From assembly GCA_041667185.1 (NCBI GenBank), contig JBAYFM010000002.1, positions 23,432 to 87,431 of the forward strand: 64,000 bases of DNA, read 5' to 3'. Positions 5,998 to 32,440 of this stretch are shown here, piece by piece. How positions within the stretch are numbered: position 1 is the first letter of the stretch; each line of letters begins with the position of its first letter. The translations under genes were made by a program, and so were the position numbers. The notes under the pieces were generated by a model. The model did not search any database, was not told where the DNA came from, and was given only the letters and a program-made list of their open reading frames with translations. This DNA is from Patescibacteria group bacterium (lineage in GTDB: Bacteria > Patescibacteriota > Patescibacteriia > SG8-24).

Positions 5998-8184
5998 TCA
6001 ACTGAGGCGCACCATGCCTGACCGAGCTTTGCTGCCGACGAGCGGCAGACTGAAGTAGAAAGTCGTGCCCACATCCTCGGTGGATTCTAACCAGATGCGG
6101 CCGCCGGAGACCTCGACGATCTGTTTGGCGAAATATAATCCAAGACCAGTCCCCTCCTCGGACTTGCCGACGATGTTACTCGCACGGAAAAATTTGTCGT
6201 AGATGCGTTTTTGATCGCTCAACGGAATGCCGTAGCCATTATCCTTGATCAGCGAAATCAGTTCTTCGCCTTTTTTCTCCAGCCGCACTTCTATTTGCGC
6301 GCCCAGCGGCGAATATTTGATCGCGTTCGTCAACAGATTCTTATAGACCTCCCGAATCAACAGCGGATCGACGCTGATGACCGGCAAACCATCCTCGGAT
6401 GTGAAAGCGATATGTTGCTTCTTTTTCGCAGCCGCCGCAGTATTTTCCCTGATCACGCCCACGGCCAGCGCGGCCAGATCAGTGGGTTTGGGATCGATCG
6501 TCAGCCGCCCGGATTCGATGCGCGTAATGTTCAGCAGTGACTTCACGAGCTCGGTCAGCCCCCGGGTCACGTCGGCGATATCGTTGATTGCCTGCGTTTC
6601 CTCCGGCTTCCGCGCAGACGACGCTTCGCTCAGCATTTCCACCGCCCATTTCAAAGCCGTGAGTGGCGTCTTCAGCTGGTGGACGGCGATATTGATGAAG
6701 TCCGTCTTCATCTGGTCGATCTTCACCTCCTGCGTGATATCGCGAACCGTCGCCTGCAAGACGTCCATGCCCTCATGGCGCATAGGCGTCAACAGCACGT
6801 TGGCGAAAAAATCAGTGCCGTCGGCTCGCTGGTGGATCCAGTTGAAAAAGTTGTGCCCCTCTTTGAGCGCCGTCGCGATCTTCTCATTGGCGGCGATGTG
6901 GGATTCGCGGCCATCGGCCTGATGAGGCGGCGAAACGTCGCCTGGATGTTTACCGAGGAATTCCTCCCGGGTCTTGTAGCCGAAGATCTTCAGGGTGGCG
7001 TTGTTGCAATCAACGAATTTCTCCGGCGTCAGCAGCATCATGGCATCCTCGGAATTCTCGAACAGGACGCGATATTTTTTCTCGCTCTCGACCAAGGCAT
7101 CCTCGAATTTCACGCGCTCGGTGATATCACGGAAGACCATGAGAGCGACAAGTTCGCCAGTCTCCAGGTCCGTTTTAACGATCGATATTTCGACCGGAAA
7201 TACCGCTCCGTCCGGCCGCTTGAGATAAGGGTGGTCATGTCCGGCATGCGAGGACGACTTGTGTTCGGATAGCACACCGGGCCCGAATACCGCGAGTGGC
7301 TGATGCTCCTCCGGCAAGGCGACGCCTTTCTGGTCAACGATCATCCAATGGATGCGGTAATCCTGACCGAGACATTCGGCCTCATTCCGACAGACCGAAT
7401 CGACCGCGAATTTATTGGCGAAGAGGATCTTGCCCGATTCGTTGAAAGCGACCACTCCTTCGCCGATGTTCATGAGTAATTTTTCGCGTTCTTCGGCCCG
7501 GTGCAATTCATTGAGTTCACCGGTGCGTCGCAGCCTCCTGGCCGACAACAAGCGTTCGATCACGAAAAAAATCAGCGGATACAGCCCCAGTAGAATAATG
7601 CTGATTGTCCGGACCTCATCCAAATCGTTGCTATATAATTTCTTGAACGCGTTGATCTCGATGTCAGTGGCTATAAAAGCGACGATCTGGCCACTCTTGT
7701 CGTACTGCGACGCGAAAGCGGAATAGAACGATCCGAATTCGTCGGTATACGGGCCGTAAAGCTGCGGTGTGCCGTAGCGGATGGTGTCTAACAAGGCCTG
7801 AGGAGGCCGCTCATAGATGGTTCCAGGCTCGTGACGAGACGGATCAGTGGGCATCGAAGAATCAACAATGAATTTGATTTCGCCATCGACCACTTTCATG
7901 GCATAGATGTTCCGAATCCCATACTCTTTCTGCATCACGCCAACCAGCTTCATGTAATGCTGTTGCAACTTGTCGTAGTTGGAATTCTGACCCTCGACGA
8001 CCGGCAGACCGGTAAAAAGTTCGGCATCAGTAGCGGCTACGACCAATTCGTTATTAGCCAGAAGCTCCTCTCCGGCGTATTCATTCAGCTCATTTCCGAC
8101 GTTGAACATCCAAAAAAGACAGGCCGCGATCAACATGACCAGTCCTATCGTAAAGATTGCTGCCAGCTTGAATTTTCTATTCAT
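5998..8184 (-). CDS. Sensor histidine kinase: N-terminal TM + extracytoplasmic sensor domain, two PAS domains, HisKA, HATPase_c. No adjacent response regulator
   Basis: 728 aa. H-box IAVHQLKTPLTALKWAVEMLSE, N-box LLTNAIKYSP, G-boxes DNGYGIP and GTGLGL. PAS-like segments (EGVVAFNESGKILFANKF..., SEDAMMLLTPEKFVDCNNATLKIFGYK...). Confidence 0.85.
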   Translation of the reverse strand: MNRKFKLAAIFTIGLVMLIAACLFWMFNVGNELNEYAGEELLANNELVVAATDAELFTGLPVVEGQNSNYDKLQQHYMKLVGVMQKEYGIRNIYAMKVVDGEIKFIVDSSMPTDPSRHEPGTIYERPPQALLDTIRYGTPQLYGPYTDEFGSFYSAFASQYDKSGQIVAFIATDIEINAFKKLYSNDLDEVRTISIILLGLYPLIFFVIERLLSARRLRRTGELNELHRAEEREKLLMNIGEGVVAFNESGKILFANKFAVDSVCRNEAECLGQDYRIHWMIVDQKGVALPEEHQPLAVFGPGVLSEHKSSSHAGHDHPYLKRPDGAVFPVEISIVKTDLETGELVALMVFRDITERVKFEDALVESEKKYRVLFENSEDAMMLLTPEKFVDCNNATLKIFGYKTREEFLGKHPGDVSPPHQADGRESHIAANEKIATALKEGHNFFNWIHQRADGTDFFANVLLTPMRHEGMDVLQATVRDITQEVKIDQMKTDFINIAVHQLKTPLTALKWAVEMLSEASSARKPEETQAINDIADVTRGLTELVKSLLNITRIESGRLTIDPKPTDLAALAVGVIRENTAAAAKKKQHIAFTSEDGLPVISVDPLLIREVYKNLLTNAIKYSPLGAQIEVRLEKKGEELISLIKDNGYGIPLSDQKRIYDKFFRASNIVGKSEEGTGLGLYFAKQIVEVSGGRIWLESTEDVGTTFYFSLPLVGSKARSGMVRLS

Positions 8185-20759: not shown

Positions 20760-21815
20760 ATGCCTGATTTCAACAAGAGGATGGACAACCTGCCGCCGAG
20801 CCTCTGGGGCGTCATCGCCAAAATCGATGAGCTGAAGGGTCGCTGGATCCAGGGCGAGTCTCTGCACCCGTATCAGCTCGCCCAGCTCAAGAAATACGTG
20901 CTCGTCACCTCGACCGGCGCCTCGACGCGCATCGAGGGCGCGACCTTGAGCGACGCCGAAGTGGAAAGGCTGATCCGCGGCGTCAGATCCAAAAAGACCG
21001 CCGAACGCGACGAACAGGAAGTCCGCGGCTACTTCGAACTCCTGGAGCGGATCTTCGAGTCCCCTGCCGCCGTCCCCTTCACCGAATCGTCGATCCTGAC
21101 CCTCCACCAAAAGATGCTCAGATACGTCGACAGCGCGGAGCCGCACCGTGGCAAGTACAAGACGGCGGAAAACGTGATTACGGCGATCGGCTCGACCGGC
21201 GGAGCGGCCGTGGTCATGAAGACGACGCCGCCGTACCTCGTCCGTAAAGAGATGGAGTCGCTTCTCGACTGGACCCGTGAGCGGCTGGCGGCCGGGGACA
21301 TTCACCCGCTCGCGGTCATCGCCAACTTCGTCGTCGAGTTCCTGAAGATCCATCCGTTCCAGGACGGCAACGGCCGCCTGTCGCGCATCCTCACGAATCT
21401 CCTGCTCCTCCGGTCCGGCTACGCCTTCGCACCTTGTGTTTCACACGAGAAGATCATCGAGCGCCGGCGGCCGGACTATTATCTGGCCCTGCGCCGCAGT
21501 CAGGCCACCATCGGCACCGGCAAAGAGGACATCGTCCCCTGGGCAGAATTCTTCCTGTCTGTCATCCTGGAGCAGGCCGAGAAAGCCGCCGCGCTCATGG
21601 AAAAGACGGGCATCGAGGAAGTCCTTTCCACCAAGCAGCTCGAGGTCTACAACGCCGTACTCGGCGGCAAGGGAGTGAGCGCTGGCGAGATCGCGGCTTC
21701 GACAGGCGTCGCCAGGCCGACGGTGAACCAGGCGCTCAGCAAACTGATCCGGTTCAAGAAGATCAGCAAGATCGGCATCGGGCGCGGGACCAAGTACTGG
21801 CCGACGAGGAAATAA
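20760..21815 (+). CDS. Fic-family protein (AMPylator/adenylyltransferase fold) with a C-terminal winged-helix domain. An intramolecular inhibitory helix motif is present (class II Fic)
   Basis: Canonical Fic motif HPFQDGNGRLSR. The N-terminal S-T-R-I-E-G segment fits the (S/T)xxxE(G/N) inhibitory motif. C-terminal HTH-like segment AGEIAASTGVARPTVNQALSKLI. An AT-rich promoter-like stretch lies at 20690-20758. Confidence 0.9.
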   Translation: MPDFNKRMDNLPPSLWGVIAKIDELKGRWIQGESLHPYQLAQLKKYVLVTSTGASTRIEGATLSDAEVERLIRGVRSKKTAERDEQEVRGYFELLERIFESPAAVPFTESSILTLHQKMLRYVDSAEPHRGKYKTAENVITAIGSTGGAAVVMKTTPPYLVRKEMESLLDWTRERLAAGDIHPLAVIANFVVEFLKIHPFQDGNGRLSRILTNLLLLRSGYAFAPCVSHEKIIERRRPDYYLALRRSQATIGTGKEDIVPWAEFFLSVILEQAEKAAALMEKTGIEEVLSTKQLEVYNAVLGGKGVSAGEIAASTGVARPTVNQALSKLIRFKKISKIGIGRGTKYWPTRK

Positions 21816-22360: not shown

Positions 22361-22807
22361 TTAGCTCTCGAGCCTTTTTCTCAGTTCGTCTATGACGGCT
22401 TTCTGCCAGTACTTCATGGAATACCGGCTGATCAGTGGCTGTGCGACTAGGCGGAGCCAGCGTTTATGGATGACGACCTGATAAGTGTAATCGATCAGGG
22501 TTCCTTCCGGGTGTTCGGAGAGCAGCACTTCTTCATGGCCGGAAGTCCCGAATTTCGGGCTTTCATTGTCCGAAACATACCCCTTGCCGGAGAGGATCTG
22601 GGTCTTCATTTTGACCGGGAACTTTTGGCCGAACGATCTGACGGTCGCCTCCATTTCCAGATGATCTCCCTCGCGCCTCACGACTCGTATGGATTCCGCG
22701 ACTTTCGGAAAATACTCAGGAAATTTTTCAAAGTCAGTCATTATGCCAAACACCTCCGTCAAAGGAGCCTTGACGAGCCACTGGGCATGAAGAGCGAGGT
22801 CTTTCAT
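22361..22807 (-). CDS. SRPBCC (START/Bet v1/polyketide-cyclase-like) family protein
   Basis: 148 aa with the typical SRPBCC layout (APLTEVFGIMTDFEKFPEYFPKVAESIRVV...KFPVKMKTQIL...). Confidence 0.65.
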   Translation of the reverse strand: MKDLALHAQWLVKAPLTEVFGIMTDFEKFPEYFPKVAESIRVVRREGDHLEMEATVRSFGQKFPVKMKTQILSGKGYVSDNESPKFGTSGHEEVLLSEHPEGTLIDYTYQVVIHKRWLRLVAQPLISRYSMKYWQKAVIDELRKRLES

Positions 22808-22845: not shown

Positions 22846-22925
22846 TAACGTCAGTCAGTCTAAGCCAAAAATGTGCAATTCTTAGGCAACCCGCGGGCAA
22901 CCGAATACGTTATCTAATCAATTTA
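22846..22925. repeat. Copy 1 of an ~80-bp direct repeat that brackets the R-M module (pairs with 27000-27078)
   Basis: cgtcagtcagtctaagccaaaaatgtgcaattcttaggcaacccgcgggcaaccgaatacgttatctaatcaattta versus tgtcagtcagtctaagtcagaagtgtacaattcttgggcaacccgtgggcaaccgaatatattgactaatttaata. About 85% identity, same orientation. Confidence 0.7.
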
Positions 22926-23498
22926 CGAACCAAGAGTCTCTAAAGGATTGTCAGAAATCTCTTCTGCTGTAAAACGTTCATTTGATGCCAAAAAAAACAT
23001 CTGCAAATTTTTGGGTACAAATATCTTTTGTTTCGGCAACTTAATGTGGTGTCTGTAGAGATTGAGGGTCTCAGAAAACAAGTCGTCGAGTATCCTCAAA
23101 CTCCAGAGGCAATCAATGCTTAGTCCGCTCTCTCCAAAACGTGTTGAATCATAAATTTTTGTCAGTTCATTCAAAAAGTCTTTCTTTTGGGAGTCATCTA
23201 GTATCTTTTTGTACTCCGGAATATATGGAAGCGCCCTGCGCATCAACCCGACTAAATTATGTCCTCGCACAAAGTTATCGATATCCTTTCCCGTCGACTC
23301 TTTAATCTCCCTCCAATATATTCGAAGGGCTGCCTTAATACATGATTCCAAACATTGTTGTGCCAATAAACAACCTGTGTCGCAAAGACCCTCAATCAAA
23401 CCTACTCGTGCCAAAATATATGCCTCGCGAGCATTCCTGACTGCGAGCAAAAAAGCAAATATTTTTGTGTCCGGCCCATTCTTCAGTGGTTTTTCCAT
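22923..23498 (-). CDS. HEPN-like helical protein (putative; defense-island context)
   Basis: 191 aa, low GC. All-alpha composition with an R-x4-6-H-like motif (VRGHNLVGLMRRA). It sits directly upstream of the restriction endonuclease gene on the same strand. Confidence 0.4.
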   Translation of the reverse strand: MEKPLKNGPDTKIFAFLLAVRNAREAYILARVGLIEGLCDTGCLLAQQCLESCIKAALRIYWREIKESTGKDIDNFVRGHNLVGLMRRALPYIPEYKKILDDSQKKDFLNELTKIYDSTRFGESGLSIDCLWSLRILDDLFSETLNLYRHHIKLPKQKIFVPKNLQMFFLASNERFTAEEISDNPLETLGS

Positions 23499-23602
23499 AA
23501 CCGCCCCTTTTCTTTTCTAAATCATTGCTGGTATTACTTGAGCAATTCTTGGTCAACCGATGGTCAACCGGACCGGGAAATAACGCGGCTAGGATTTATA
23601 CG

Positions 23603-25012
23603 TCAATTCGATTGCGAGGCTGCTACGATATCTGCTATGAATTTCCTATTTAACCAGAAGCATTTCCTCACATACCTCTTCCCGTCTGGAGCGATGTCTG
23701 TGTCTGCCGCATTACGTGCATGTGGTCGGACATGACAGACCGGGCTCTCGGATTCACGGGGTAAATCATCTATTCTTCCCGCCTTGATCATCTTCACTGT
23801 TTTCTCCCAGACCTTTTTTACCTCGCCCTCAAGGGCGTCTGTCGGCATTGTCCAAAACAATACTTTTTTCAGGACCAATCGACCCGACTCATTCCTCTGG
23901 AAGACGACGAAAAAGAACCGCTGCTGAAATAAGCGTCTTAAATCTGAGTCATCCCAAGTCTGCGCGATGAGATCATTGTAGCGAAATGCGGGGAAAGACA
24001 TGGATTCCTTTGGTGCCCCATGCCGCTCTAACCTGATGGTTTTCATCAGTACTCCTGCCTTTTCGAACTCTTCGATCTTCTTCTTCCGAACACCCAAAAT
24101 AGCTCTCGTGAGGACTGCGATGTAATTTTTTGCGCTCGGATCAAGGATCAACTGCAATTCCGCGTTGATCTCATCAGTGGTCATCCCGATGAATGTCTTG
24201 AATCGTCTGGCGATATATTCCTCGAAGGTCTCGCCGCCCCTATAGGCATTAGAGGCCTTAACGGCTGGCTCCAGCTCTTTCCGTGCGAGCCTCGGGGCCA
24301 GTAGCCGTTCCAATATCGTTGTCACGTATGGCTGCTTGAGGGTCAGCGATCGCTGTTTGGCGTCAGGCCCACGAGGTTGTTTTCTCAACTTCGAGCCCTT
24401 CTGACCAGAGGTGGCGGCACCAAGATACAAGGTATCACCTTCTGATATCTCGTGTGCCCTTCCACCCCTCACCTTCTCGACGATCAGATTCCAATCATCC
24501 CGTATGATCTTCAGGTCGCCGTCGGGATAATCCCAGAGATGTGCGAGCCTGATGAGCGCATCACGATAATCAAAACCTGTCGGTCGGGAACCCCTGCGGT
24601 CTCGCAGGTAAGCGACCAGCAGGAGAAGGGCGTTCTTCTTCAAGAACGAGCTCGTCTCCCATTCTTCAGTGGCCATTTGCTCATAGTCTATGCTGCCCAA
24701 CTTGATCCGCTCCCCCGCGACCAGTTTGTTGTTCTTTCGCTGGTCGATGGGAAAGGACTTCAGCTCCACCCCTGCTTCGGTGAAGTCCGGCGCTGAAATG
24801 TTTCCTGGCGATATCTTGAAGTAATATTCTTCAAGGTCCTGACCAAAACCACCCTTCCCGGCACGTTTCGTGTCAGGAAGGTCAACGGCAATCTTTTCCC
24901 TGAGGCTATGCCCGAGAAGTTCTTGCGCGTAAGCTTCTATTGATTTTGGATCGGTTTGATCGTAATTCATATGTCTGATACGATTATGACGGATGTGGAT
25001 AAGTTCGTCCAA
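23603..25012 (-). CDS. Type II restriction endonuclease of the Sau3AI/MutH family
   Basis: 469 aa. N-terminal KRAGKGGFGQDLEEYYFKISPGNISAPDFTEAGVELKSFPI is collinear with the MutH/Sau3AI catalytic core (KGW-GQLLE...PDF...GIELK). The long C-terminal domain is consistent with the Sau3AI allosteric domain. Paired with an adjacent C5-MTase and Vsr. Confidence 0.7.
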   Translation of the reverse strand: MDELIHIRHNRIRHMNYDQTDPKSIEAYAQELLGHSLREKIAVDLPDTKRAGKGGFGQDLEEYYFKISPGNISAPDFTEAGVELKSFPIDQRKNNKLVAGERIKLGSIDYEQMATEEWETSSFLKKNALLLLVAYLRDRRGSRPTGFDYRDALIRLAHLWDYPDGDLKIIRDDWNLIVEKVRGGRAHEISEGDTLYLGAATSGQKGSKLRKQPRGPDAKQRSLTLKQPYVTTILERLLAPRLARKELEPAVKASNAYRGGETFEEYIARRFKTFIGMTTDEINAELQLILDPSAKNYIAVLTRAILGVRKKKIEEFEKAGVLMKTIRLERHGAPKESMSFPAFRYNDLIAQTWDDSDLRRLFQQRFFFVVFQRNESGRLVLKKVLFWTMPTDALEGEVKKVWEKTVKMIKAGRIDDLPRESESPVCHVRPHARNAADTDIAPDGKRYVRKCFWLNRKFIADIVAASQSN

Positions 25013-25081
25013 TGGCGAAGTTGATCTTCTGTCGATGACCGTCTATAATGATATGGCTATGTTCACCAGTAATACTCTCTT

Positions 25082-26497
25082 ATGATCAAGGGCAAGAAAA
25101 GCAACAAGATCCTCCGCGCAGCAGAATTATTCGCTGGTGTCGGCGGTTTCCGCATCGGACTCGACCGAGCGTCGTCCAGGAACAAACGGTTCGAGACTGT
25201 CTGGGCCAACCAGTGGGAGCCGTCGTCAGGCAAGATACAGCACGCGGCCTGGGTTTACGAACAAGCGTTCTTCAGGTCGCGAGACAAGACGGAGGCCGAG
25301 ATGAAGAAAGGATTCTCTAACATCGACATCAACAAGGTCGTGAACAGCGATGTGAGCATCGCCGACGACATTCCCCCGTTCGACCTGTTGACCGGCGGCT
25401 TTCCCTGCCAAGACTATTCGGTGGCTCGTCCACTCAGCCAGGCCGCCGGACTCAAGGGCAAAAAAGGTGTCCTCTGGTGGAGCATCTATGAAATCCTGCG
25501 GCACAGGATAGACTCTTCGAAGGAAGGGCCTGTCCCCTACCTGTTCCTGGAGAATGTCGACCGTCTCCTGAAATCTCCGGCATCGAATCGGGGGCGCGAT
25601 TTCGCCATCATGCTTTCGACATTGTCCGAACTCGGCTATGTGGTCGAGTGGCGTGTGATAAACGCTGGAGAGTACGGCCTGCCCCAACGCCGTCGTCGCA
25701 CTTACATAGTCGGCTACCACAAGACGACCAGGTTGGCCCAGGAGGCCAGAGCGGCCAAAAATCATCTTGAGTGGGTGCTGCGGAGCGGTGTCGTCGCCAA
25801 AGCCTTCCCGGTGGAGAAGACGTTCGTGCGCGGCGGATTCTTTGGCCTGTCGACCAGACCAGAGGACATCACGAAGCGCTTCGTCCCGCTGGACCCGGAG
25901 GTAGACGTGGATTTCTCCGCTCCATTCCAGAATGCCGGTCTGATGATTGAGGGACGGGTCCATACCGCCAAGACCTCGCCCGTCTTCCATGGCAAACCCC
26001 AGACCTTGGGTGACATCCTGCAACCAGAGGATACGGTTCCGAAGCAATTCTATATCCCTGCGTCAGAGGTAAAGAAATGGGAGCAGCAGAAGGCGGCGCA
26101 TCGATTCGAGAGGACTCACAAGGACGGGCATAAGTATCTGTACGTCGAAGGCAGGCTCCCCTTCCCTGATCCGTTGGATAAGCCCTCGCGCACGATCATA
26201 ACCAGCGAAGGAGGCCGGTCATCATCGCGGTTCAAACATGTCATCGGCGTGCGACAGCGCCCTGGATATCCCAAGGGCCGCACTATCGACGGACAGACTT
26301 ACCTGTACAGACGACTTACGCCGATAGAATTAGAGAGACTCTGCATGTTCGAAGATGACCACACCAGACTGATGTTCAATCCTCTCAAACAGGAGATCTC
26401 TGAGGTGCCGGATACGAAAAGAGCGTTCTTCATGGGGAACGCCCTCGTGGTCGGAGTCATCACCAAGATAGGCCGGGAACTACTTAAACGAGTCTGA
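25082..26497 (+). CDS. DNA (cytosine-5)-methyltransferase (Dcm-type; motif I FxGxG, motif IV PCQ, motif VI ENV)
   Basis: 471 aa. ELFAGVGGFRIGL (motif I), GGFPCQDYSVA (PC motif), LFLENVDRLL (ENV), and the C-terminal target-recognition/motif IX-X region (...FMGNALVVGVITKIG). Confidence 0.9.
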   Translation: MIKGKKSNKILRAAELFAGVGGFRIGLDRASSRNKRFETVWANQWEPSSGKIQHAAWVYEQAFFRSRDKTEAEMKKGFSNIDINKVVNSDVSIADDIPPFDLLTGGFPCQDYSVARPLSQAAGLKGKKGVLWWSIYEILRHRIDSSKEGPVPYLFLENVDRLLKSPASNRGRDFAIMLSTLSELGYVVEWRVINAGEYGLPQRRRRTYIVGYHKTTRLAQEARAAKNHLEWVLRSGVVAKAFPVEKTFVRGGFFGLSTRPEDITKRFVPLDPEVDVDFSAPFQNAGLMIEGRVHTAKTSPVFHGKPQTLGDILQPEDTVPKQFYIPASEVKKWEQQKAAHRFERTHKDGHKYLYVEGRLPFPDPLDKPSRTIITSEGGRSSSRFKHVIGVRQRPGYPKGRTIDGQTYLYRRLTPIELERLCMFEDDHTRLMFNPLKQEISEVPDTKRAFFMGNALVVGVITKIGRELLKRV

Positions 26498-26905
26498 ACT
26501 GTCGCGCAGCAGATCCAAGACCCTGAGCACCGCCCGCTCGGGGTCTTTTTTGATGTCATGCTCCCAAATTCTCAGCACCCGCCATCCGTGGCGTCGCAGA
26601 CCGGCCGTGTGACGCCGATCCCGTGCCCGATTCCGCTCGATCTTATCTCTCCAGAACTTCAGCCGAATCTTATGTTTCCATGCCGGGTAACGATACCCGT
26701 GCCAAAAATCTCCGTCGATGAATACTGCTATTTTATTTTTCGGCAAGGCGATGTCCGGAACCCCGAAAGCGGTGTGATAATGCCGCCGGAACCTGATACC
26801 GACTGCTGATAGTGCGCGAAACATGACCAGTTCCAACGAGGTATTTTTACCTCGAATCTTTGACATGATGATGCTCCGGACCTCTTTTGAAAACCTGTCT
26901 GGCAT
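26480..26905 (-). CDS. vsr: Very-short-patch repair endonuclease Vsr
   Basis: 141 aa. MPDRFSKEVRSIIMSKIRGKNTSLELVMFRALSAVGIRFRRHY...IAVFIDGDFWHGY...WRDKIERNRARDRRHTAGLRRHGWRVLRIWEHD is highly characteristic of Vsr. It overlaps the MTase 3' end convergently. Confidence 0.9.
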   Translation of the reverse strand: MPDRFSKEVRSIIMSKIRGKNTSLELVMFRALSAVGIRFRRHYHTAFGVPDIALPKNKIAVFIDGDFWHGYRYPAWKHKIRLKFWRDKIERNRARDRRHTAGLRRHGWRVLRIWEHDIKKDPERAVLRVLDLLRDSSDSFK

Positions 26906-26999
26906 CGGAGTAATGGTTCGAGACTAGGGCTCGAACCCATGAATCCTTAATTCTTGATCTGACCTATCGTCAGCGGAAACTTCGTCCGTCAGCACTCGT

Positions 27000-27078
27000 C
27001 AGTGTCAGTCAGTCTAAGTCAGAAGTGTACAATTCTTGGGCAACCCGTGGGCAACCGAATATATTGACTAATTTAATA
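27000..27078. repeat. Copy 2 of the ~80-bp direct repeat (pairs with 22846-22925)
   Basis: See copy 1. It carries a plus-strand sigma70-like TTGACT-17-TATCAT arrangement at its 3' end that copy 1 lacks. Confidence 0.7.
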
Positions 27079-27092
27079 TTCATTGATATCAT

Positions 27093-27824
27093 TTAGTCGT
27101 GCTCCGCAAGGGGTGCCCTGCCTGTGGATACAGGTCCGATGTCAAGACCCTCCCCGCCTAACGGCGCGTTGGGTCTTTTGATAATAGTTATATATTTTTT
27201 GATTCTTTGAGCGTTGATTGTAATATCGGCTTTGCGTTTGAATTCGATTCTAGTACTACTGCCGTGAATAAGAATCACGTTCTTTTTAGCTCGCTTCTTT
27301 ACGTGTTCGAGCAGCCCGCCGAAGTCATTATCGCTAGAAAATAAGCATAGAGTATCGAACTTGTCGGCCATCCTTGTAACATCGAGACAAAGTTCGACAT
27401 CGAAATTGCATTTTTGAATCACGATAAATCTATGTCCTTGATCATCGACTTCCGTCGTTCGTGATGTGGCTTTATCATCAGTTTGAATGTAATGGCGTAT
27501 CAGCTGGATGGGTTTTGTTATTGTCGACGAAAACTGATTCCTTGCCTTTTTAATGAGGTGGAGCGACGACGGCCTACTTTCGTCCAGGCCGTAATAGAAT
27601 AAACTTCGGGTCGAAAACCGATTTACGAATTCGCCCAGTCGATTGATGCTTACGACAATTTTTTCTTCCTCTCGTAAAGCTGCACCGGAATCATCGCGCC
27701 TATCTTTTTCGTACCAATAATTTACATTACCAAAATCAATGTACGTATAAATTCGACCCAGTTGGGTTAAATCAATGCGCAAGTCGTCTAAAATAATTTT
27801 AGTTTTTGCTTCATCAAGATTCAT
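27093..27824 (-). CDS. NYN-domain (PIN-like RNase fold) protein
   Basis: Start set at the Met that overlaps the upstream gene's stop (MNLDEAKTKII...); an earlier in-frame Met at 27863 is an alternative. NYN signatures YIDFGNVNYWY and CLFSSDNDFGGLLEHVKK, with acidic residues in VIQKCNFDVELCLDV. Low GC. Confidence 0.65.
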   Translation of the reverse strand: MNLDEAKTKIILDDLRIDLTQLGRIYTYIDFGNVNYWYEKDRRDDSGAALREEEKIVVSINRLGEFVNRFSTRSLFYYGLDESRPSSLHLIKKARNQFSSTITKPIQLIRHYIQTDDKATSRTTEVDDQGHRFIVIQKCNFDVELCLDVTRMADKFDTLCLFSSDNDFGGLLEHVKKRAKKNVILIHGSSTRIEFKRKADITINAQRIKKYITIIKRPNAPLGGEGLDIGPVSTGRAPLAEHD

Positions 27825-28339
27825 AACATCGGGCCCGACTTTTGGCTGATATGCTCGCTGCACCTAAATTCACCAAGTAATTTTAGATATTCCGACTGGC
27901 GACTAGTTTCTACCCACCCATCGGTTAATTTTCCGATGCGTTGCTCGCCGGCAATTACGCTGCACGGTGAGCAATAGAAAGCTTCGGGTGTTGCAACAAA
28001 TAACCAGGAGGGGTTCCAGCGATCGAGCAATTTGGATGCATGCGCGACTATTTGCTCAATATCAAATCGAGTCTGATATTTTACCTCGACAAGATACACT
28101 TCCTTTTTGTTACTCGAAATGAGGACAAAATCTGGGGCGTCCGAAATATTGTTTATTACTTGTTCAATCTCCACAAAATGCCGATACTGCGCCAACGTGG
28201 GCAGGGTGTGTTCGTACCCAAAAGGAATCACGGTATACCGGCCTTCCTTACGAATCATTTGCTCGAACAACACCTCGGCTATGCGACCCCGAATTAATTT
28301 GCGGGCGTAGGATATTTCGTCTGAAAATTTTTCGTCCAT
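27821..28339 (-). CDS. PD-(D/E)xK-like nuclease-fold protein (putative)
   Basis: 172 aa. APDFVLISSNKKEVYLVEVKYQTR gives D...E-V-K spacing typical of the PD-(D/E)xK core. Its stop overlaps the NYN gene start. Low GC. Confidence 0.5.
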   Translation of the reverse strand: MDEKFSDEISYARKLIRGRIAEVLFEQMIRKEGRYTVIPFGYEHTLPTLAQYRHFVEIEQVINNISDAPDFVLISSNKKEVYLVEVKYQTRFDIEQIVAHASKLLDRWNPSWLFVATPEAFYCSPCSVIAGEQRIGKLTDGWVETSRQSEYLKLLGEFRCSEHISQKSGPML

Positions 28340-28357
28340 AAATAGCTGTCAGCGCCC

Positions 28358-29311
28358 CTACATCGCTGGAGGCTCAATTTGTTTGGTCTCTGGCGTTTCA
28401 GCGGTATTTAGCGCATGAATCTTTTTGTAGTCAATCTGCAATTGCCCGCCCTGCTCTGTGGCATATGACGGTGGGTTTAGCGACAGGTGAAATTCGGCTC
28501 CGTCACCAAGTATTGCTACGAGGTCTTTGGTGGCGATAACAAGCTGAGTGTGCAGCTCGGCGTTTGCTCTCCCGTTTAGTTCCTTGATATCATTGATGAT
28601 ATTTTTAATGCGTTCTTTAAGTTCGAGATCTAACAGATTATCGATATATTTAATCAGCCCTTTTTCAGTGAATTCTTTTTCTTTTTCAAGTGCTGCCAGA
28701 CTGGCCTTATAATTTAACTCCGCACTTTTTGATTCATAATACGCCTTCTTTGTCTCCAAATACTTTATTGCGCCATCCAAACAGCCAAGAAAGTACTGAT
28801 AAGTTAAAGTACCGGCTGCTAATATTGCGTACCAATTGGTTCCTCGGTCAAAACCCGCAAATGTAAATTCGCCGTCGACGTTAAATTTTTTGAGAGTAGC
28901 GCCCAATTTAGTATTAAACGCGGTCAACTCGTCTAAGTTTGCTGTAGTTTTTGGTAAAAGTACGTTGATGATTTGCGCCGCTTGATCTTCAACAGCATCC
29001 GTAAGCATCGCATAAAATAGCGGGGCCGTTTTATTGAGCTGATCGACGTAGGATTTAAGGAACGAGAATTCGTCTTGCGGCAACAAAACTGGATTAGCGG
29101 CGGTTTTGTGAGCTTCAAGAACCTTCGCCACTGATTCACTTGGCAACTTATTCCATGACATTGATATAAACTTTTCGAGCGCAGTTGATATCTCAACAAA
29201 ATTTTCTACTTCAGAGGCTTGTCCGCCATATACGGCACGTGATTTGAGAGTAATCACGCCGACATCACTAACTACCTCTTTGATAATTTTTCGTAGTTCT
29301 CCTAATCGCAT
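28358..29311 (-). CDS. Hypothetical all-alpha protein, first gene of the three-gene low-GC cassette
   Basis: 317 aa, K/E/L-rich helical composition, no recognisable catalytic motif. 18-nt gap to the downstream PD-(D/E)xK-like gene. Confidence 0.55.
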   Translation of the reverse strand: MRLGELRKIIKEVVSDVGVITLKSRAVYGGQASEVENFVEISTALEKFISMSWNKLPSESVAKVLEAHKTAANPVLLPQDEFSFLKSYVDQLNKTAPLFYAMLTDAVEDQAAQIINVLLPKTTANLDELTAFNTKLGATLKKFNVDGEFTFAGFDRGTNWYAILAAGTLTYQYFLGCLDGAIKYLETKKAYYESKSAELNYKASLAALEKEKEFTEKGLIKYIDNLLDLELKERIKNIINDIKELNGRANAELHTQLVIATKDLVAILGDGAEFHLSLNPPSYATEQGGQLQIDYKKIHALNTAETPETKQIEPPAM

Positions 29312-29629
29312 ACAAGTTGCATTTATTTAATATTTTATGTAAGTTTAGCGCCATGAAGCTCATAATTCAAGAGCTAGAGCGCCGCTTTGACGCGATTAAA
29401 TTCAAACCGCGCGATTTTGAATTTTGATGGACTGAACGACTCCCCTCGCTCCGACTCGGGCCGGGGTTGGCGCGAGTCAATGAGCGCCAACGGGCGACAT
29501 GGGTCGCCCGGGGTCAGCCGAGGCCTTCATTACTTTGCCGAGGCTGACTGCGCACCGCCCCGCAATGTTGCGGGGCTCTCGCGTCCTTCTCGCCCCAGTT
29601 CCGCAGCTAAACAAAATTCGCCACGCCTC

Positions 29630-30394
29630 CTATTTCCGAGCCTCAACCTTCAGACTCTCCAACGGAATACCCTGATATTGCCGCTTACTGATGTCCTTGT
29701 CCTCGGATAAGATCTTCACTTTGAAACCTGCGCGAGCAATCTTCTTCAGATATTCGTCCCGGAGGACGGCCCCGCCGACGCAGCCCGCGATCAATTCTTC
29801 GTCCCCCCTCTGCTCAGCGGTCAAGTCCTCCAGAAGCACGATATCTGACAAATACATCCGGCCGCCGTCTTTCAGCACCCGCCAGGCCTCTTCAAACACT
29901 TTTGACTTGTCCGGGGCCAGATTGATGACGCAGTTGCTGATGATGACGTCGACCGAGCCGCTATCGACGGGTAGGTCCTCGATGTCGCCCAGCCTGAATT
30001 CGACGTTTTTGTAACCTTGCCTGTCGGCATTCATCCTGGCCTTGTCGATCATCTCCTGGGTCATGTCGACGCCTATGACCCGGCCGGTCCGGCCGACCTT
30101 CCTGGCGGCCAAAAAACAGTCGAAGCCGGCACCTGACCCAAGATCCAGAACAGTGTCGCCTTCCTTGATCTCGGCCATCCCCGTCGGGTTGCCGCAGCCC
30201 AGACCCAGATTGGACCCCGCCGCCGATCTGATCTCCGCAGCCGAATAACCGATGCTTTCGGCTATCCGTTCGTTTTCCCCGTCACCGCCACAACTACAGC
30301 TGCAACAACAGCCTTTACCGGCGATCTTGCTGTAGTGTTTTTTTACGATCTGCTTGACTGACTTGCCTGCGGTCATGTGAGTTGGGTCAAACAT
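29630..30394 (-). CDS. arsM: Arsenite S-adenosylmethionine methyltransferase ArsM (Cys-rich N-terminus)
   Basis: 254 aa. SAM motif [13 protein letters not shown], conserved ArsM cysteines ([12 protein letters not shown] and GLGCGNP), and IISNCVINL. Confidence 0.85.
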
Positions 30395-30577: not shown

Positions 30578-30580
30578 ACA

Positions 30581-30600
30581 TGGCTCCGAGGCTGGGGCTC
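30581..30600 (-). repeat. 20-nt exact copy of the 3' end of tRNA-Asn (att-like direct repeat)
   Basis: tggctccgaggctggggctc at 30581-30600 is identical to 30853-30872 (CCA, discriminator, acceptor 3' strand, T-stem). Similarity stops exactly after the T-stem. The two copies are 272 bp apart. Confidence 0.6.
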
Positions 30601-30814
30601 CTCTTCCCCCGCCGCTCGGGTCTTGGGGCCCCTCGACCTCGGCAAAATATTGAAAGCCTCGGTCGAGCCGCGGTCGCCGTTGCGACCGTTCGCTGCTTCG
30701 CTGGCTTGCGGCTCACCCCAAGCCTCGTGGCTCCTCCAGAGCCCGGGTCATCCGGCGAGTGCCATTCAAGGCACTCGCCGGATGTACCCTTCTCGCCCCA
30801 GCCTCGGTACAATA

Positions 30815-30850
30815 AAGAAGAGGCGGTGCCGTATGGGCACCGCCTCTTCT
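30815..30850 (-). terminator. Strong rho-independent terminator abutting the tRNA-Asn 3' end
   Basis: AAGAAGAGGCGGTGCC-GTAT-GGGCACCGCCTCTTCTT is a perfect 16-bp stem with a U-tract on the minus strand. Confidence 0.7.
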
Positions 30851-30852
30851 TA

Positions 30853-30927
30853 TGGCTCCGAGGCTGGGGCTCGAACCCAGAACAAATGGATTAACAGTCC
30901 ATTGCTCTACCATTGAGCTACCTCGGA
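30853..30927 (-). tRNA. tRNA-Asn (anticodon GTT), CCA encoded
   Basis: Manual fold of TCCGAGGTAGCTCAATGGTAGAGCAATGGACTGTTAATCCATTTGTTCTGGGTTCGAGCCCCAGCCTCGGAGCCA. 7-bp acceptor stem, D-arm GCTC/GAGC, anticodon stem ATGGA/TCCAT with loop CTGTTAA, T-arm CTGGG-TTCGAGC-CCCAG. Confidence 0.9.
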
Positions 30928-31176
30928 ATAATGATTTCCAATGAACGCTTTAACAAATTCGCGGCCGCATCCTGACTTCAACCATTTTTCCCGTTTTCTC
31001 GCTGTTGGCCGATCTGGTGTTTCCTCGCTATAGACCATGACATATGGCCTATGGTTCTTAGTCCACCTGACGTATCCGGAATTATGTTCCTTGAGACGCC
31101 GTGCGAGATCAGAAGTTAAACCAATATATAACGTCCGATCAACCAGACTCCGTAAGACATAAACCTTGTATTCCAT
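30907..31176 (-). CDS. Small GIY-YIG nuclease-domain protein (YhbQ/UPF0213-like). Its last seven codons are the 5' end of tRNA-Asn
   Basis: 89 aa. KVYVLRSLVDRTLYIGLTSDLARRLKEHNSG fits the GIY-YIG core (Y-x-L...YIG, Arg, Glu). The C-terminal ...SEVAQW* is encoded by TCCGAGGTAGCTCAATGGTAG, which is tRNA-Asn positions 1-21. Confidence 0.7.
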   Translation of the reverse strand: MEYKVYVLRSLVDRTLYIGLTSDLARRLKEHNSGYVRWTKNHRPYVMVYSEETPDRPTARKREKWLKSGCGREFVKAFIGNHYSEVAQW

Positions 31177-31179
31177 AAG

Positions 31180-31232
31180 CAGTCCATTGCTCCCTGCCTA
31201 CCGGCAGGCAGGTACCATTGAGCTACCTCGGA
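31180..31232 (-). pseudogene. Duplicated 5' half of tRNA-Asn (acceptor 5' strand, D-arm, anticodon-stem 5' strand) with a 20-nt hairpin inserted in the D-loop
   Basis: Minus-strand TCCGAGGTAGCTCAATGGTA[CCTGCCTGCCGGTAGGCAGG]GAGCAATGGACTG matches tRNA-Asn positions 1-20 and 21-33 around the bracketed insertion. It lies immediately 5' of the GIY-YIG start. Confidence 0.6.
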
Positions 31233-31320
31233 ATATAAACGTATTCCTTGACGGGAATAAGGCTGGCCAAAGAACTGACCGAAATAGTTTAGCACAAGAA
31301 ATAAATTTGGCAACACCGGG

Positions 31321-31600
31321 AGCTGAAAGATCCATTAAAAAGAGAGTGCGGGAGCCACGTCGTTCGCGAACGACGTGGCGGAGTGTGGGAGAGGCTGGAT
31401 TCCCGCTGGAGTGAAACCCCGCACTTGCTGCGGGGCGGGAATGACAATAAAAAGAGGGTGGATTATAAAACCACGAGCTGATCCCCCTTCGCTAAAGCTT
31501 CGGGGGACAAGTCGGAGGATTCGCGAATTATAAAACCCCGAGCTGGCGCTCGGGGTTACATATTGGAGGCGAAGAAGCCGGCCTCATGATCCGATCTCGA
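31321..31600. repeat. Composite intergenic repeat element, copy R1 (GGAG-rich tract, 24-nt perfect palindrome, conserved hairpins)
   Basis: Contains GAGTGCGGGAG, the palindrome CCACGTCGTTCGCGAACGACGTGG (31355-31378), GGGCGGGAATGACA, GGATTATAAAACC plus a hairpin, and ATTATAAAACCCCGAGCTGGCGCTCGGGGTTA. The modules are shared with R2 (32222-32440) and R3 (37125-37440). Confidence 0.6.
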
Positions 31601-32221: not shown

Positions 32222-32440
32222 AGATAGATGAGAGAAACGAAGTCATGGAGTGCGGGAGAGACGGAGTCACGTCGTTCGCGAACGACGTGGCGGAGAGTGC
32301 AGGAGTGCGGGAGTGCGGGAGTAAAGAGGATGGATTATAAAACCCCTGGCTCAATCCCCCTCCGCTGAAGCTGCGGGGGATTCACGAGTCATAAAACCCC
32401 GAGCTGACGCTCGGGGTAAAATTAAGGTGGCGAAAAAAAA
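32222..32440. repeat. Composite intergenic repeat element, copy R2
   Basis: GGAGTGCGGGAGAGACGGAG, the palindrome TCACGTCGTTCGCGAACGACGTGG (32267-32290), GAGTGCAGGAGTGCGGGAGTGCGGGAG, GGATTATAAAACC, and CATAAAACCCCGAGCTGACGCTCGGGGTAAAA. It lies in the 5' region of CPBP paralog 1. Confidence 0.6.

Follow-up and report, generated by a model that had tools for sequence, protein, structure and literature searches.

A probable mosaic defence island downstream of the dnaG–rpoD–tRNA-Asn anchor of a high-GC Patescibacteria genome

A 64,000-nucleotide stretch of Patescibacteria DNA (hereafter the window; assembly GCA_041667185.1, contig JBAYFM010000002.1, positions 23,432 to 87,431) contains an AT-rich tract of seven genes at 22.8–29.4 kb. 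The host is a bacterium of the Candidate Phyla Radiation (CPR, Patescibacteria) with about 60% GC. We conclude that the tract is probably a mosaic defence island, built up by several horizontal acquisitions downstream of a conserved dnaG–rpoD–tRNA-Asn anchor, and that its donors were most likely other CPR bacteria. An earlier note, made from the letters of the window, had described the tract as a horizontally acquired 6.5-kb defence segment inserted between high-GC core genes. Its foreign composition, its defence cargo and the nearby tRNA-Asn gene with attachment site-like (att-like) fragments uphold the horizontal origin; the idea of a single 6.5-kb insert does not survive, since at least three modules can be distinguished.

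Sliding-window GC analysis agreed with the tract proposed at 22.9–29.35 kb. In 500-bp windows, GC was 0.487 ± 0.058 (minimum 0.39) inside 22846–29350 against 0.604 ± 0.040 outside, and the 6.5-kb window with the lowest GC of the entire 64 kb starts at about 22900. GC fell below 0.50 in 5 of 556 outside windows, two of them at about 7.7–8.3 kb and three on a GIY-YIG gene at 30.8–31.5 kb. Change-points were located at about 22802 and 29429, at most 50–80 bp from the coordinates first given, and they bound an AT-rich tract of about 6.6 kb. The surroundings, previously put above 65% GC, measured about 60%. The expected contrast was also found at the codon level: GC at third codon positions (GC3) is 0.79–0.84 (about 0.80) in the long core genes, against 0.42 for HEPN, 0.43 for NYN, 0.42 for orf317, 0.50 for orf172, 0.58 for Sau3AI, 0.62 for Vsr and 0.70 for Dcm. 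The immediate flanks had been taken for core genes; their SRPBCC and ArsM genes have transitional GC3 values of 0.64 and 0.71.

The tract divides into three blocks, which we call modules: the HEPN gene (module 2, 22850–23570, GC 0.41), the Sau3AI–Dcm–Vsr genes (module 1, 23571–26913, GC 0.53) and the NYN–orf172–orf317 genes (module 3, 27093–29430, GC 0.43). All seven genes listed in the earlier note are present, five of them matching curated models above the cut-off. Their common description as defence-type genes holds for the HEPN protein, the restriction endonuclease, the methyltransferase, Vsr, NYN and the PD-(D/E)xK protein; orf317 has no defence annotation and is linked to defence by context only. 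A single 6.5-kb element inserted once between core genes would account for the unbroken low-GC tract, for its sharp outer change-points and for the common strand of six of the seven genes. We nevertheless regard such a single insertion as improbable. The blocks lie 10–12 GC points apart, with GC3 of 0.42–0.50 in some genes against 0.58–0.70 in others; a scar of the tRNA-Asn 3′ end and a set of junction repeats, both described below, lie within the tract; the SRPBCC and ArsM flanks are themselves compositionally intermediate; and the genes of module 3 were never found together, nor with the restriction-modification (R-M) genes of module 1, in nine other contexts.

Module 1 (23.6–26.9 kb) is, on sequence evidence, an intact Sau3AI-type type II R-M system. 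Its restriction endonuclease gene (23603–25012, minus strand) encodes a protein that matches the equivalog model NF040973 with 426.7 bits (cut-off 300) over profile positions 2–474 of 475. PF02976 (MutH) matches this protein in two stretches, and the PADLOC model REase_II matches it with an E-value of 2.8e-77. The full Sau3AI architecture, with an N-terminal catalytic domain and a C-terminal MutH-like domain, is present. The endonuclease is 35–39% identical to Sau3AI-family genes of Firmicutes plasmids, and its target is presumed to be GATC. The divergent gene next to it (25082–26497, plus strand) encodes a C5 cytosine DNA methyltransferase matched by PF00145 (E 5.5e-48, positions 2–323 of 324), TIGR00675 (189 bits) and PADLOC MTase_II (E 3.5e-133), with GFPCQDYS and ENV motifs in its translation and intact catalytic motifs. 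This gene has its own promoter-like site (25021–25049) and a strong terminator (26517–26547); a sigma-70 promoter scan was not above chance overall, and these two signals alone were noteworthy. The same divergent dcm/Sau3AI arrangement was found on the Priestia plasmid NZ_CP092389.1. The third gene, vsr (26480–26905, minus strand), is convergent with the methyltransferase gene, the last 18 nt of which it overlaps; the very-short-patch repair endonuclease that it encodes matches TIGR00632 with 114.7 bits (cut-off 97.85) over positions 1–119 of 119, and PF03852 with an E-value of 4e-22.

From their family membership, the methyltransferase would protect the GATC sites of the host as GAT(m5C), and the Sau3AI-type enzyme would cleave incoming unmethylated GATC. 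Vsr would nick beside the T of T:G mismatches that arise from deamination of 5-methylcytosine (5mC). Vsr enzymes offset this deamination, and limiting its mutational cost matters here because the genome holds about 11 GATC sites per kb. Both Sau3AI-type systems and Dcm–Vsr pairs are textbook objects. The module resembles the R.Sau3AI/M.Sau3AI system in its end-to-end equivalog match and its two MutH-like stretches, and the Priestia plasmid system in its adjacent, divergent m5C methyltransferase gene; it differs in being 35–43% identical to the plasmid-borne Firmicutes homologues, in residing in a CPR bacterium and in being accompanied by Vsr. In E. coli, too, the m5C methyltransferase gene dcm overlaps vsr, and the logic of Vsr offsetting 5mC deamination is the same. 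The E. coli genes are co-directional, however, whereas those of the window are convergent and belong to a complete R-M system, and the mismatch context would be derived from GATC rather than CCWGG.

The host genome shows no avoidance of GATC: outside the island (1–22801 and 29430–64000) there are 10.9 GATC per kb, with an observed/expected ratio of 1.14 under a maximal-order Markov model. GATC is thus left unavoided in the host despite the resident GATC-type restriction system, while in the same regions CTAG is depleted (0.56) and AATT enriched (1.79). GATC avoidance was considered as a clock of residence time and set aside, the host showing none and the ratio in the island, 0.71, being within noise.

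Module 2 (22.9–23.5 kb) consists of a solitary HEPN protein. The gene (22923–23498, minus strand) has a low GC content and encodes a stand-alone protein of 191 amino acids that matches PF05168 with 28.6 bits (cut-off 22) and has no match in PDB, PADLOC or PHROG. Reading the 191-residue sequence revealed no Rx4-6H motif anywhere, and the intergenic regions flanking the gene (104 and 115 nt) contain no open reading frame (ORF) for an MNT partner. Because both motif and partner are missing, activity of this HEPN protein appears doubtful from its sequence.

Module 3 (27.1–29.4 kb) is an operon in which orf317 is followed by orf172 and then by NYN. The last gene (27093–27824, minus strand) encodes a LabA-like, PIN-fold NYN nuclease of 243 amino acids that matches PF01936 with 43.6 bits (cut-off 24.2). 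Among 40 homologues, D30 is near-invariant (at least 90%) and D142, E144, D148, D165 and D167 are invariant. Compared with PDB, the profile of the family picked out entry 2qip at 1e-7, which its depositors named ‘protein of unknown function VPA0982’. We found 103 NYN homologues, with CPR-type names alone wherever the source gives a name.

Preceding it in the operon, orf172 (27821–28339, minus strand) has no match in Pfam, PADLOC, NCBIfam or PHROG. The earlier assignment to the PD-(D/E)xK nucleases stands, by an invariant motif together with the predicted fold. E22, D70 (in APDF) and E85 and K87 (in LVEVKY) are invariant in the family, and the AlphaFold2 model has a predicted local distance difference test score (pLDDT) of 89.5. 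Nearly all Foldseek matches of this model in PDB, including every top one, are PD-(D/E)xK nucleases, with probabilities of 0.9–1.0; they include Hjc, RecU, the nuclease domain of SPARDA and influenza PA-N, with weak E-values of 2e-3 to 3e-2. As judged from motif and model, orf172 is a PD-(D/E)xK nuclease. It represents a conserved 154-amino-acid family, highly conserved in CPR, with more than 247 homologues at 55–69% identity.

The third gene of the module, orf317 (28358–29311, minus strand), encodes an uncharacterised stand-alone protein. Its predicted model is confident (pLDDT 91.9) and has no Foldseek fold match in PDB or BFVD, and no significant sequence match was found in PDB, Pfam, NCBIfam, PADLOC or PHROG. 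The sole PADLOC match, to GajB, is weak (E 0.0028) and presumably spurious. The family is large, with 62 close homologues and, in an exhaustive profile search, 528 representatives at 50% clustering. Among the best 150 of these 528, the full-length relatives are stand-alone proteins of about 300–340 amino acids, with no longer fused forms. M1, R2 and the motif E273-x-H275-x-S-L-N-P-P are invariant, and the N-terminal MR is accompanied by LGE at 90% or more. Distant family members showed no known domain, and ten of them gave no consistent PADLOC match; a single weak match of one of these (to a cyclase, E 0.0018) is presumably spurious. A phage origin of orf172 and orf317 was considered and rejected: orf172 is absent from the viral sequences of IMG/VR, orf317 gave one marginal match there at 21% identity, and neither has a PHROG match. 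The link of orf317 to defence comes from genomic context, by which it is a candidate new defence gene.

For one homologue of orf317 (P0054, at 6001–6978 of loci L250/L251), translation with genetic code 11 does not reproduce the database protein, and code 25 gives a better score. UGA is thus probably a sense codon in its host, which by our reading belongs to a Gracilibacteria- or Absconditabacteria-type lineage. In that case, the orf317 family would reach beyond Parcubacteria-type (Paceibacteria) lineages.

Wherever the source gives a name it is that of a CPR bacterium, and the orf317, orf172 and NYN families appear to be confined to CPR. The contexts of nine homologues were sampled, five of orf317, two of orf172 and two of NYN. 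At two unrelated loci, the orf317 homologue is enclosed in a type I system, with hsdM on one side and hsdS/hsdR on the other; an orf317 homologue is also found flanked by two type II R-M systems and adjoining a LexA-like gene, and another downstream of rpoD beside an IS200-type transposase. One NYN homologue is placed between type III mod and res and one adjoins a Bsp6I R-M system, while an orf172 homologue adjoins Mrr and Fic. In none of the nine contexts do any two of the three genes, or the R-M genes of the window with any of them, occur together. A conserved partner gene beside orf317 homologues was looked for and dismissed, their neighbours being mutually unrelated.

These contexts bear on the possibility that orf317, the PD-(D/E)xK protein and NYN form one three-gene defence system, for example a sensor with two nuclease effectors. 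Such a system would account for the tight operon, in which 18 nt separate orf317 from orf172 and the stop codon of orf172 overlaps the start of NYN by 4 nt, and for the similar GC3 of the three genes (0.42–0.50). Given that no pair co-occurs elsewhere and that the neighbours of orf317 homologues differ from locus to locus, we hold it to be rather improbable. By association, the three are most likely independent single-gene defence or R-M-accessory genes that happen to share one operon here.

In four low-GC CPR loci (GC 0.34–0.41), the homologues of orf317, orf172 and SRPBCC match the local composition. Since these homologues are compositionally native in low-GC loci and the module-3 genes show a wide GC3 gap from their present host, low-GC CPR bacteria are the most likely donors, and the module 3 operon would have come from them.

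For genes that lie within type I R-M operons, a role in defence has been shown by experiment, as for TgvAB (PMC11411939). Like TgvAB in the type I R-M system of V. cholerae, PrrC and the candidates of Payne et al., orf317 homologues occur between hsdM and hsdS/hsdR at two loci, and one NYN homologue occupies the corresponding place between mod and res of a type III system. The comparison has its limits: orf317 resembles none of these proteins in sequence or fold, and in the window it lies beside a type II system, not inside one.

On the minus strand, the last stop codon of each module is followed by a related junction sequence. Two 69-nt copies, DR-a (22850–22918) and DR-b (27004–27072), are 86% identical and begin 4 nt past HEPN and 20 nt past NYN, respectively; a partial third copy (23532–23570), with two mismatches in the core motif, lies 32 nt past Sau3AI. 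The core can be written as TTGGGCAACC-N3-GGGCAACCG, with GGCAACC motifs in tandem at a distance of 11 nt. It occurs three times in the 64 kb, at the three module boundaries, against 0.03 occurrences expected, and not at all in the other CPR loci fetched for comparison. A search of viral contigs gave 65 matches to the 16-base core, about the chance number by a rough estimate, and none extends past the core. Folding of the junction repeats was no better than that of shuffled sequences (z −0.7 to +1.5); the repeats form no hairpin and so are not attC-like, and the idea of attC sites was abandoned.

The modules might alternatively be cassettes of a recombinase-driven array, integron-like although not an integron, in which each 3′ end would carry a recombination or recombinase-binding site in the form of the junction, where GGTTGCCC is repeated in tandem at a spacing of 11 nt. 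The placement of a related sequence 4–32 nt past the last stop codon of all three modules, its restriction to these three places and the differing composition of the modules, as expected of independently captured cassettes, all speak for such an array. We consider it unlikely, as the junctions lack attC-like hairpins, the window holds no recombinase gene and no similar sequence was found at any other fetched CPR locus; moreover, with three copies, all in the same genome, a recombination site cannot be told from an operator, a shared 3′ untranslated region or a duplication. True integron cassette arrays likewise consist of serial modules, each followed by a related sequence (39–69 nt at the window junctions). 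They differ from the window in having attC hairpins and IntI, and the window modules include multi-gene ones, with at least Dcm carrying its own promoter-like site.

The features reported beyond the right edge of the island, ArsM, tRNA-Asn and att-like tRNA fragments, are all real. The tRNA-Asn (GTT) gene lies at 30853–30927 on the minus strand (detected by ARAGORN; 72.8 bits with the Rfam tRNA model), 1.4 kb from the island edge and with ArsM in between. An exact, att-like 21-nt direct copy of its 3′ end (two exact copies, none expected) is found on the same strand at 30580–30600, 272 bp downstream of the tRNA, and encloses just 251 bp. A decayed copy of the 3′ end, comprising T-arm, acceptor strand and CCA, lies inside the island at 26914–26943 (minus strand), with 27 of 31 positions matching. 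It has the orientation of the tRNA and ends 8 nt upstream of the Vsr start codon, between Vsr and DR-b. Its local alignment score of 53 compares with 27.8 ± 4.4 for shuffled sequences (z about 5.7), none of 2000 shuffles reaching 53, and we regard it as probably an att scar. Interpretation of the fragment as a full pseudo-tRNA was discarded, only the 3′ part of about 30 nt being convincing and the full-length score equalling the background of the window.

We propose that DNA integrated site-specifically, several times in succession, at the tRNA-Asn 3′ end, and that these events left the exact copy at 30580 and the decayed one at 26914 as scars. Further recombination may have taken place between modules at the shared 39–69-nt junction sequence, and the integrase would since have been lost or be located elsewhere.

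Several observations weigh against this reading. As the earlier note had already stated, there is no integrase or transposase in the window: none was seen among the genes called around the island, and none among 20 additional ORFs that we scanned. The tRNA-derived repeats fail to bracket the island as a whole, and no copy of the tRNA 3′ end was found at its left boundary when up to three mismatches were allowed. The 26914 fragment is short, is seen by neither the Rfam tRNA covariance model nor ARAGORN, and has 5′ of it a similarity to the tRNA no better than background. The junction repeats are 86% identical rather than exact copies, and their role in recombination is a conjecture. The HEPN protein lacks the catalytic Rx4-6H motif. 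Housekeeping contexts were met among the homologues as well, one orf317 homologue adjoining a dnaK operon and one orf172 homologue lying in a Campbellbacteria housekeeping neighbourhood. At one locus (L171), the order rpoD, orf317 homologue, SRPBCC mirrors that of the window, which might reflect an old linkage of these genes instead of their independent insertion. Finally, no empty site was found among the fetched relatives, none of which is close enough.

The last two points would also fit a region that is native and vertically inherited with an atypical composition; and since the window derives from a MEGAHIT metagenome contig and the left boundary lies 70 bp from the end of a Logan contig, an assembly chimera has to be weighed too. 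We find either explanation very improbable. An ENA contig (ERZ27249449 k141_1320996, 109.6 kb) is 100% identical to the window, and in a JGI contig (sample 3300037810) island and junctions are the same, apart from 5–6 differences over 17 kb (99.97% identity); the same junctions in this independent assembly argue against a chimera. For the orf317 protein, an NCBI record and a longest contig of 127 kb are also listed. GC3 values of 0.42–0.50 against about 0.80 are far beyond the host range, the measured homologues of orf317, orf172 and SRPBCC share the local GC of their low-GC loci, and the tRNA scars and repeats point to recombination. A mosaic of horizontal acquisitions is still the explanation that we favour.

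The relatives of the host DnaG and RpoD are overwhelmingly CPR proteins, and NCBI lists the window's proteins under ‘Patescibacteria group bacterium’. At about 60% GC (GC3 about 0.80), the host is far richer in GC than the related CPR loci fetched for comparison (34–53% GC). Several of its closest DnaG relatives, in records derived from GTDB, are labelled ‘uncultured Gammaproteobacteria’ or ‘Vicinamibacterales’, which looks like mis-binning or mislabelling. Relatives were sought through DnaG in reference genomes, through RpoD in metagenomes and by exact look-ups of ArsM, a 131-amino-acid membrane protein and RpoD. These look-ups returned the same strain or distant relatives without shared flanks, and the contigs of the closest DnaG matches stop directly after dnaG. 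The flanking genes (SRPBCC, the 131-amino-acid membrane protein, Fic and the Rce1-like genes) are absent from all fetched relatives, whose RpoD proteins are 51–84% identical. Relatives this distant, with none of the flanking genes in common, permit no empty-site comparison.

The anchor itself is conserved. The gene order dnaG, rpoD, tRNA-Asn is kept in the nearest relatives, and rpoD is followed by tRNA-Asn in L088, L090, L091, L092 and L032. In L091, the tRNA is followed by a low-GC truncated Dcm, an IrrE/XRE pair and an SLFN-AlbA_2 gene; in L092, by a GIY-YIG gene and an HsdR fragment; in L088 and L032, by unrelated genes. Low-GC mobile or defence remnants thus lie directly after tRNA-Asn in two of the four informative relatives, and this varied gene content suggests, although it does not prove, that the region after rpoD–tRNA-Asn is a recurrent insertion hotspot.

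The flanks of the island appear to have a history of their own. On the left, the SRPBCC/polyketide-cyclase-like gene (22361–22807, minus strand, 148 amino acids; PF03364, E 4.8e-6; GC 0.515) encodes a protein 72% identical to a copy in L171, although RpoD of L171 is just 51% identical to that of the host. The L171 copy also lies downstream of rpoD, near the orf317 homologue, and SRPBCC is probably an older accessory gene rather than a core gene. The Fic protein of the window (20760–21815) is 46% identical to the Fic found beside the orf172 homologue and Mrr on another CPR contig of the same JGI sample, and this left ‘core’ flank may be an older, ameliorated accessory region. On the right, arsM (29630–30394, minus strand) encodes an arsenite methyltransferase matching NF008823 with 314.7 bits (cut-off 263) and is probably an accessory gene as well. 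Inverted repeats of 33 nt (82% complementary) lie on either side of it at 29511–29543 and 30637–30669. Further downstream, three families of GC-rich direct repeats (80–89% identical, some with perfect 24-nt palindromes) flank one Rce1-like gene, at 31344–31576 and 32256–32437. The GC-rich repeat families near ArsM and this Rce1-like gene may be elements like repetitive extragenic palindromes (REP) or miniature inverted-repeat transposable elements (MITE). At a distance from the island, a PAS/HisKA/HATPase histidine kinase gene (5998–8184) has a GC of 0.535 and a GC3 of 0.68, below its neighbours, with windows at 7.7–8.3 kb that fall to 0.47; it may be a second foreign gene.

The surroundings of tRNA-Asn show some further peculiarities. 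The 251-bp segment bracketed by the exact 21-nt repeats (30580–30872) is GC-rich (0.65) and rich in hairpins; an integrated element may have left it behind, or it may be a miniature insertion. At 30795–30870, the acceptor 3′ strand of the tRNA pairs with a downstream inverted copy in a long hairpin, which gives rise to spurious matches to miRNA families in Rfam. Within 30853–31235 (minus strand), the GIY-YIG gene (89 amino acids, PF01541, GC3 0.44) overlaps the first 21 nt of the intact tRNA-Asn. It lies between this tRNA and a partial tRNA-Asn copy made up of the 5′ acceptor strand, D-arm and anticodon stem, which is broken in the D-loop by the 20-nt palindrome CCTGCCTGCCGGTAGGCAGG. The closest relative (L090, RpoD 84% identical, 35% GC) has the same GIY-YIG/tRNA-Asn layout at 775–1189, with a near-identical hairpin insert, and in L092 the GIY-YIG gene comes immediately after tRNA-Asn. 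The arrangement looks like a mobile cassette of GIY-YIG and tRNA-Asn that displaces the resident tRNA.

As a whole, the island belongs to a familiar class, that of mosaic defence islands linked to a tRNA gene. It shares with other tRNA-linked islands its position downstream of a tRNA gene, direct repeats of the 3′ end in the orientation of the tRNA, a deviant composition and a defence cargo; it differs in having no integrase, in repeats that do not bracket the whole, in a distal (left) end without a tRNA scar and in the ArsM gene that intervenes between tRNA and island. Genomic islands with R-M systems, mostly transferred from CPR to CPR, have already been described in Patescibacteria (PMC12455944). 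The R-M-bearing island reported there, in a CPR genome and likewise compositionally deviant, was found by IslandViewer and carries a type I system, whereas in the island of the window the system is of type II, comes with Vsr and adjoins nuclease genes specific to CPR, and the host is a CPR bacterium of high GC. Less ordinary are the large orf317 family, which lacks any Foldseek match and occurs in restriction operons, the island-specific junction repeats, and the GIY-YIG/tRNA-Asn arrangement shared with a relative of 35% GC. A bolder suggestion, which we offer tentatively, is that orf317 is a new CPR-wide single-gene immune or R-M-accessory protein and, separately, that the junction repeats mark an undescribed form of cassette exchange in Patescibacteria.

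Elaborate immunity is often said to be missing from Patescibacteria, whose genomes are tiny. Here, a high-GC CPR bacterium stacks a complete GATC-type restriction system and Vsr damage control with three CPR-specific genes of nuclease type or of unknown function. The practical value of the finding is a short list of candidates: orf317, the conserved 154-amino-acid PD-(D/E)xK family and the R-M-embedded NYN family.

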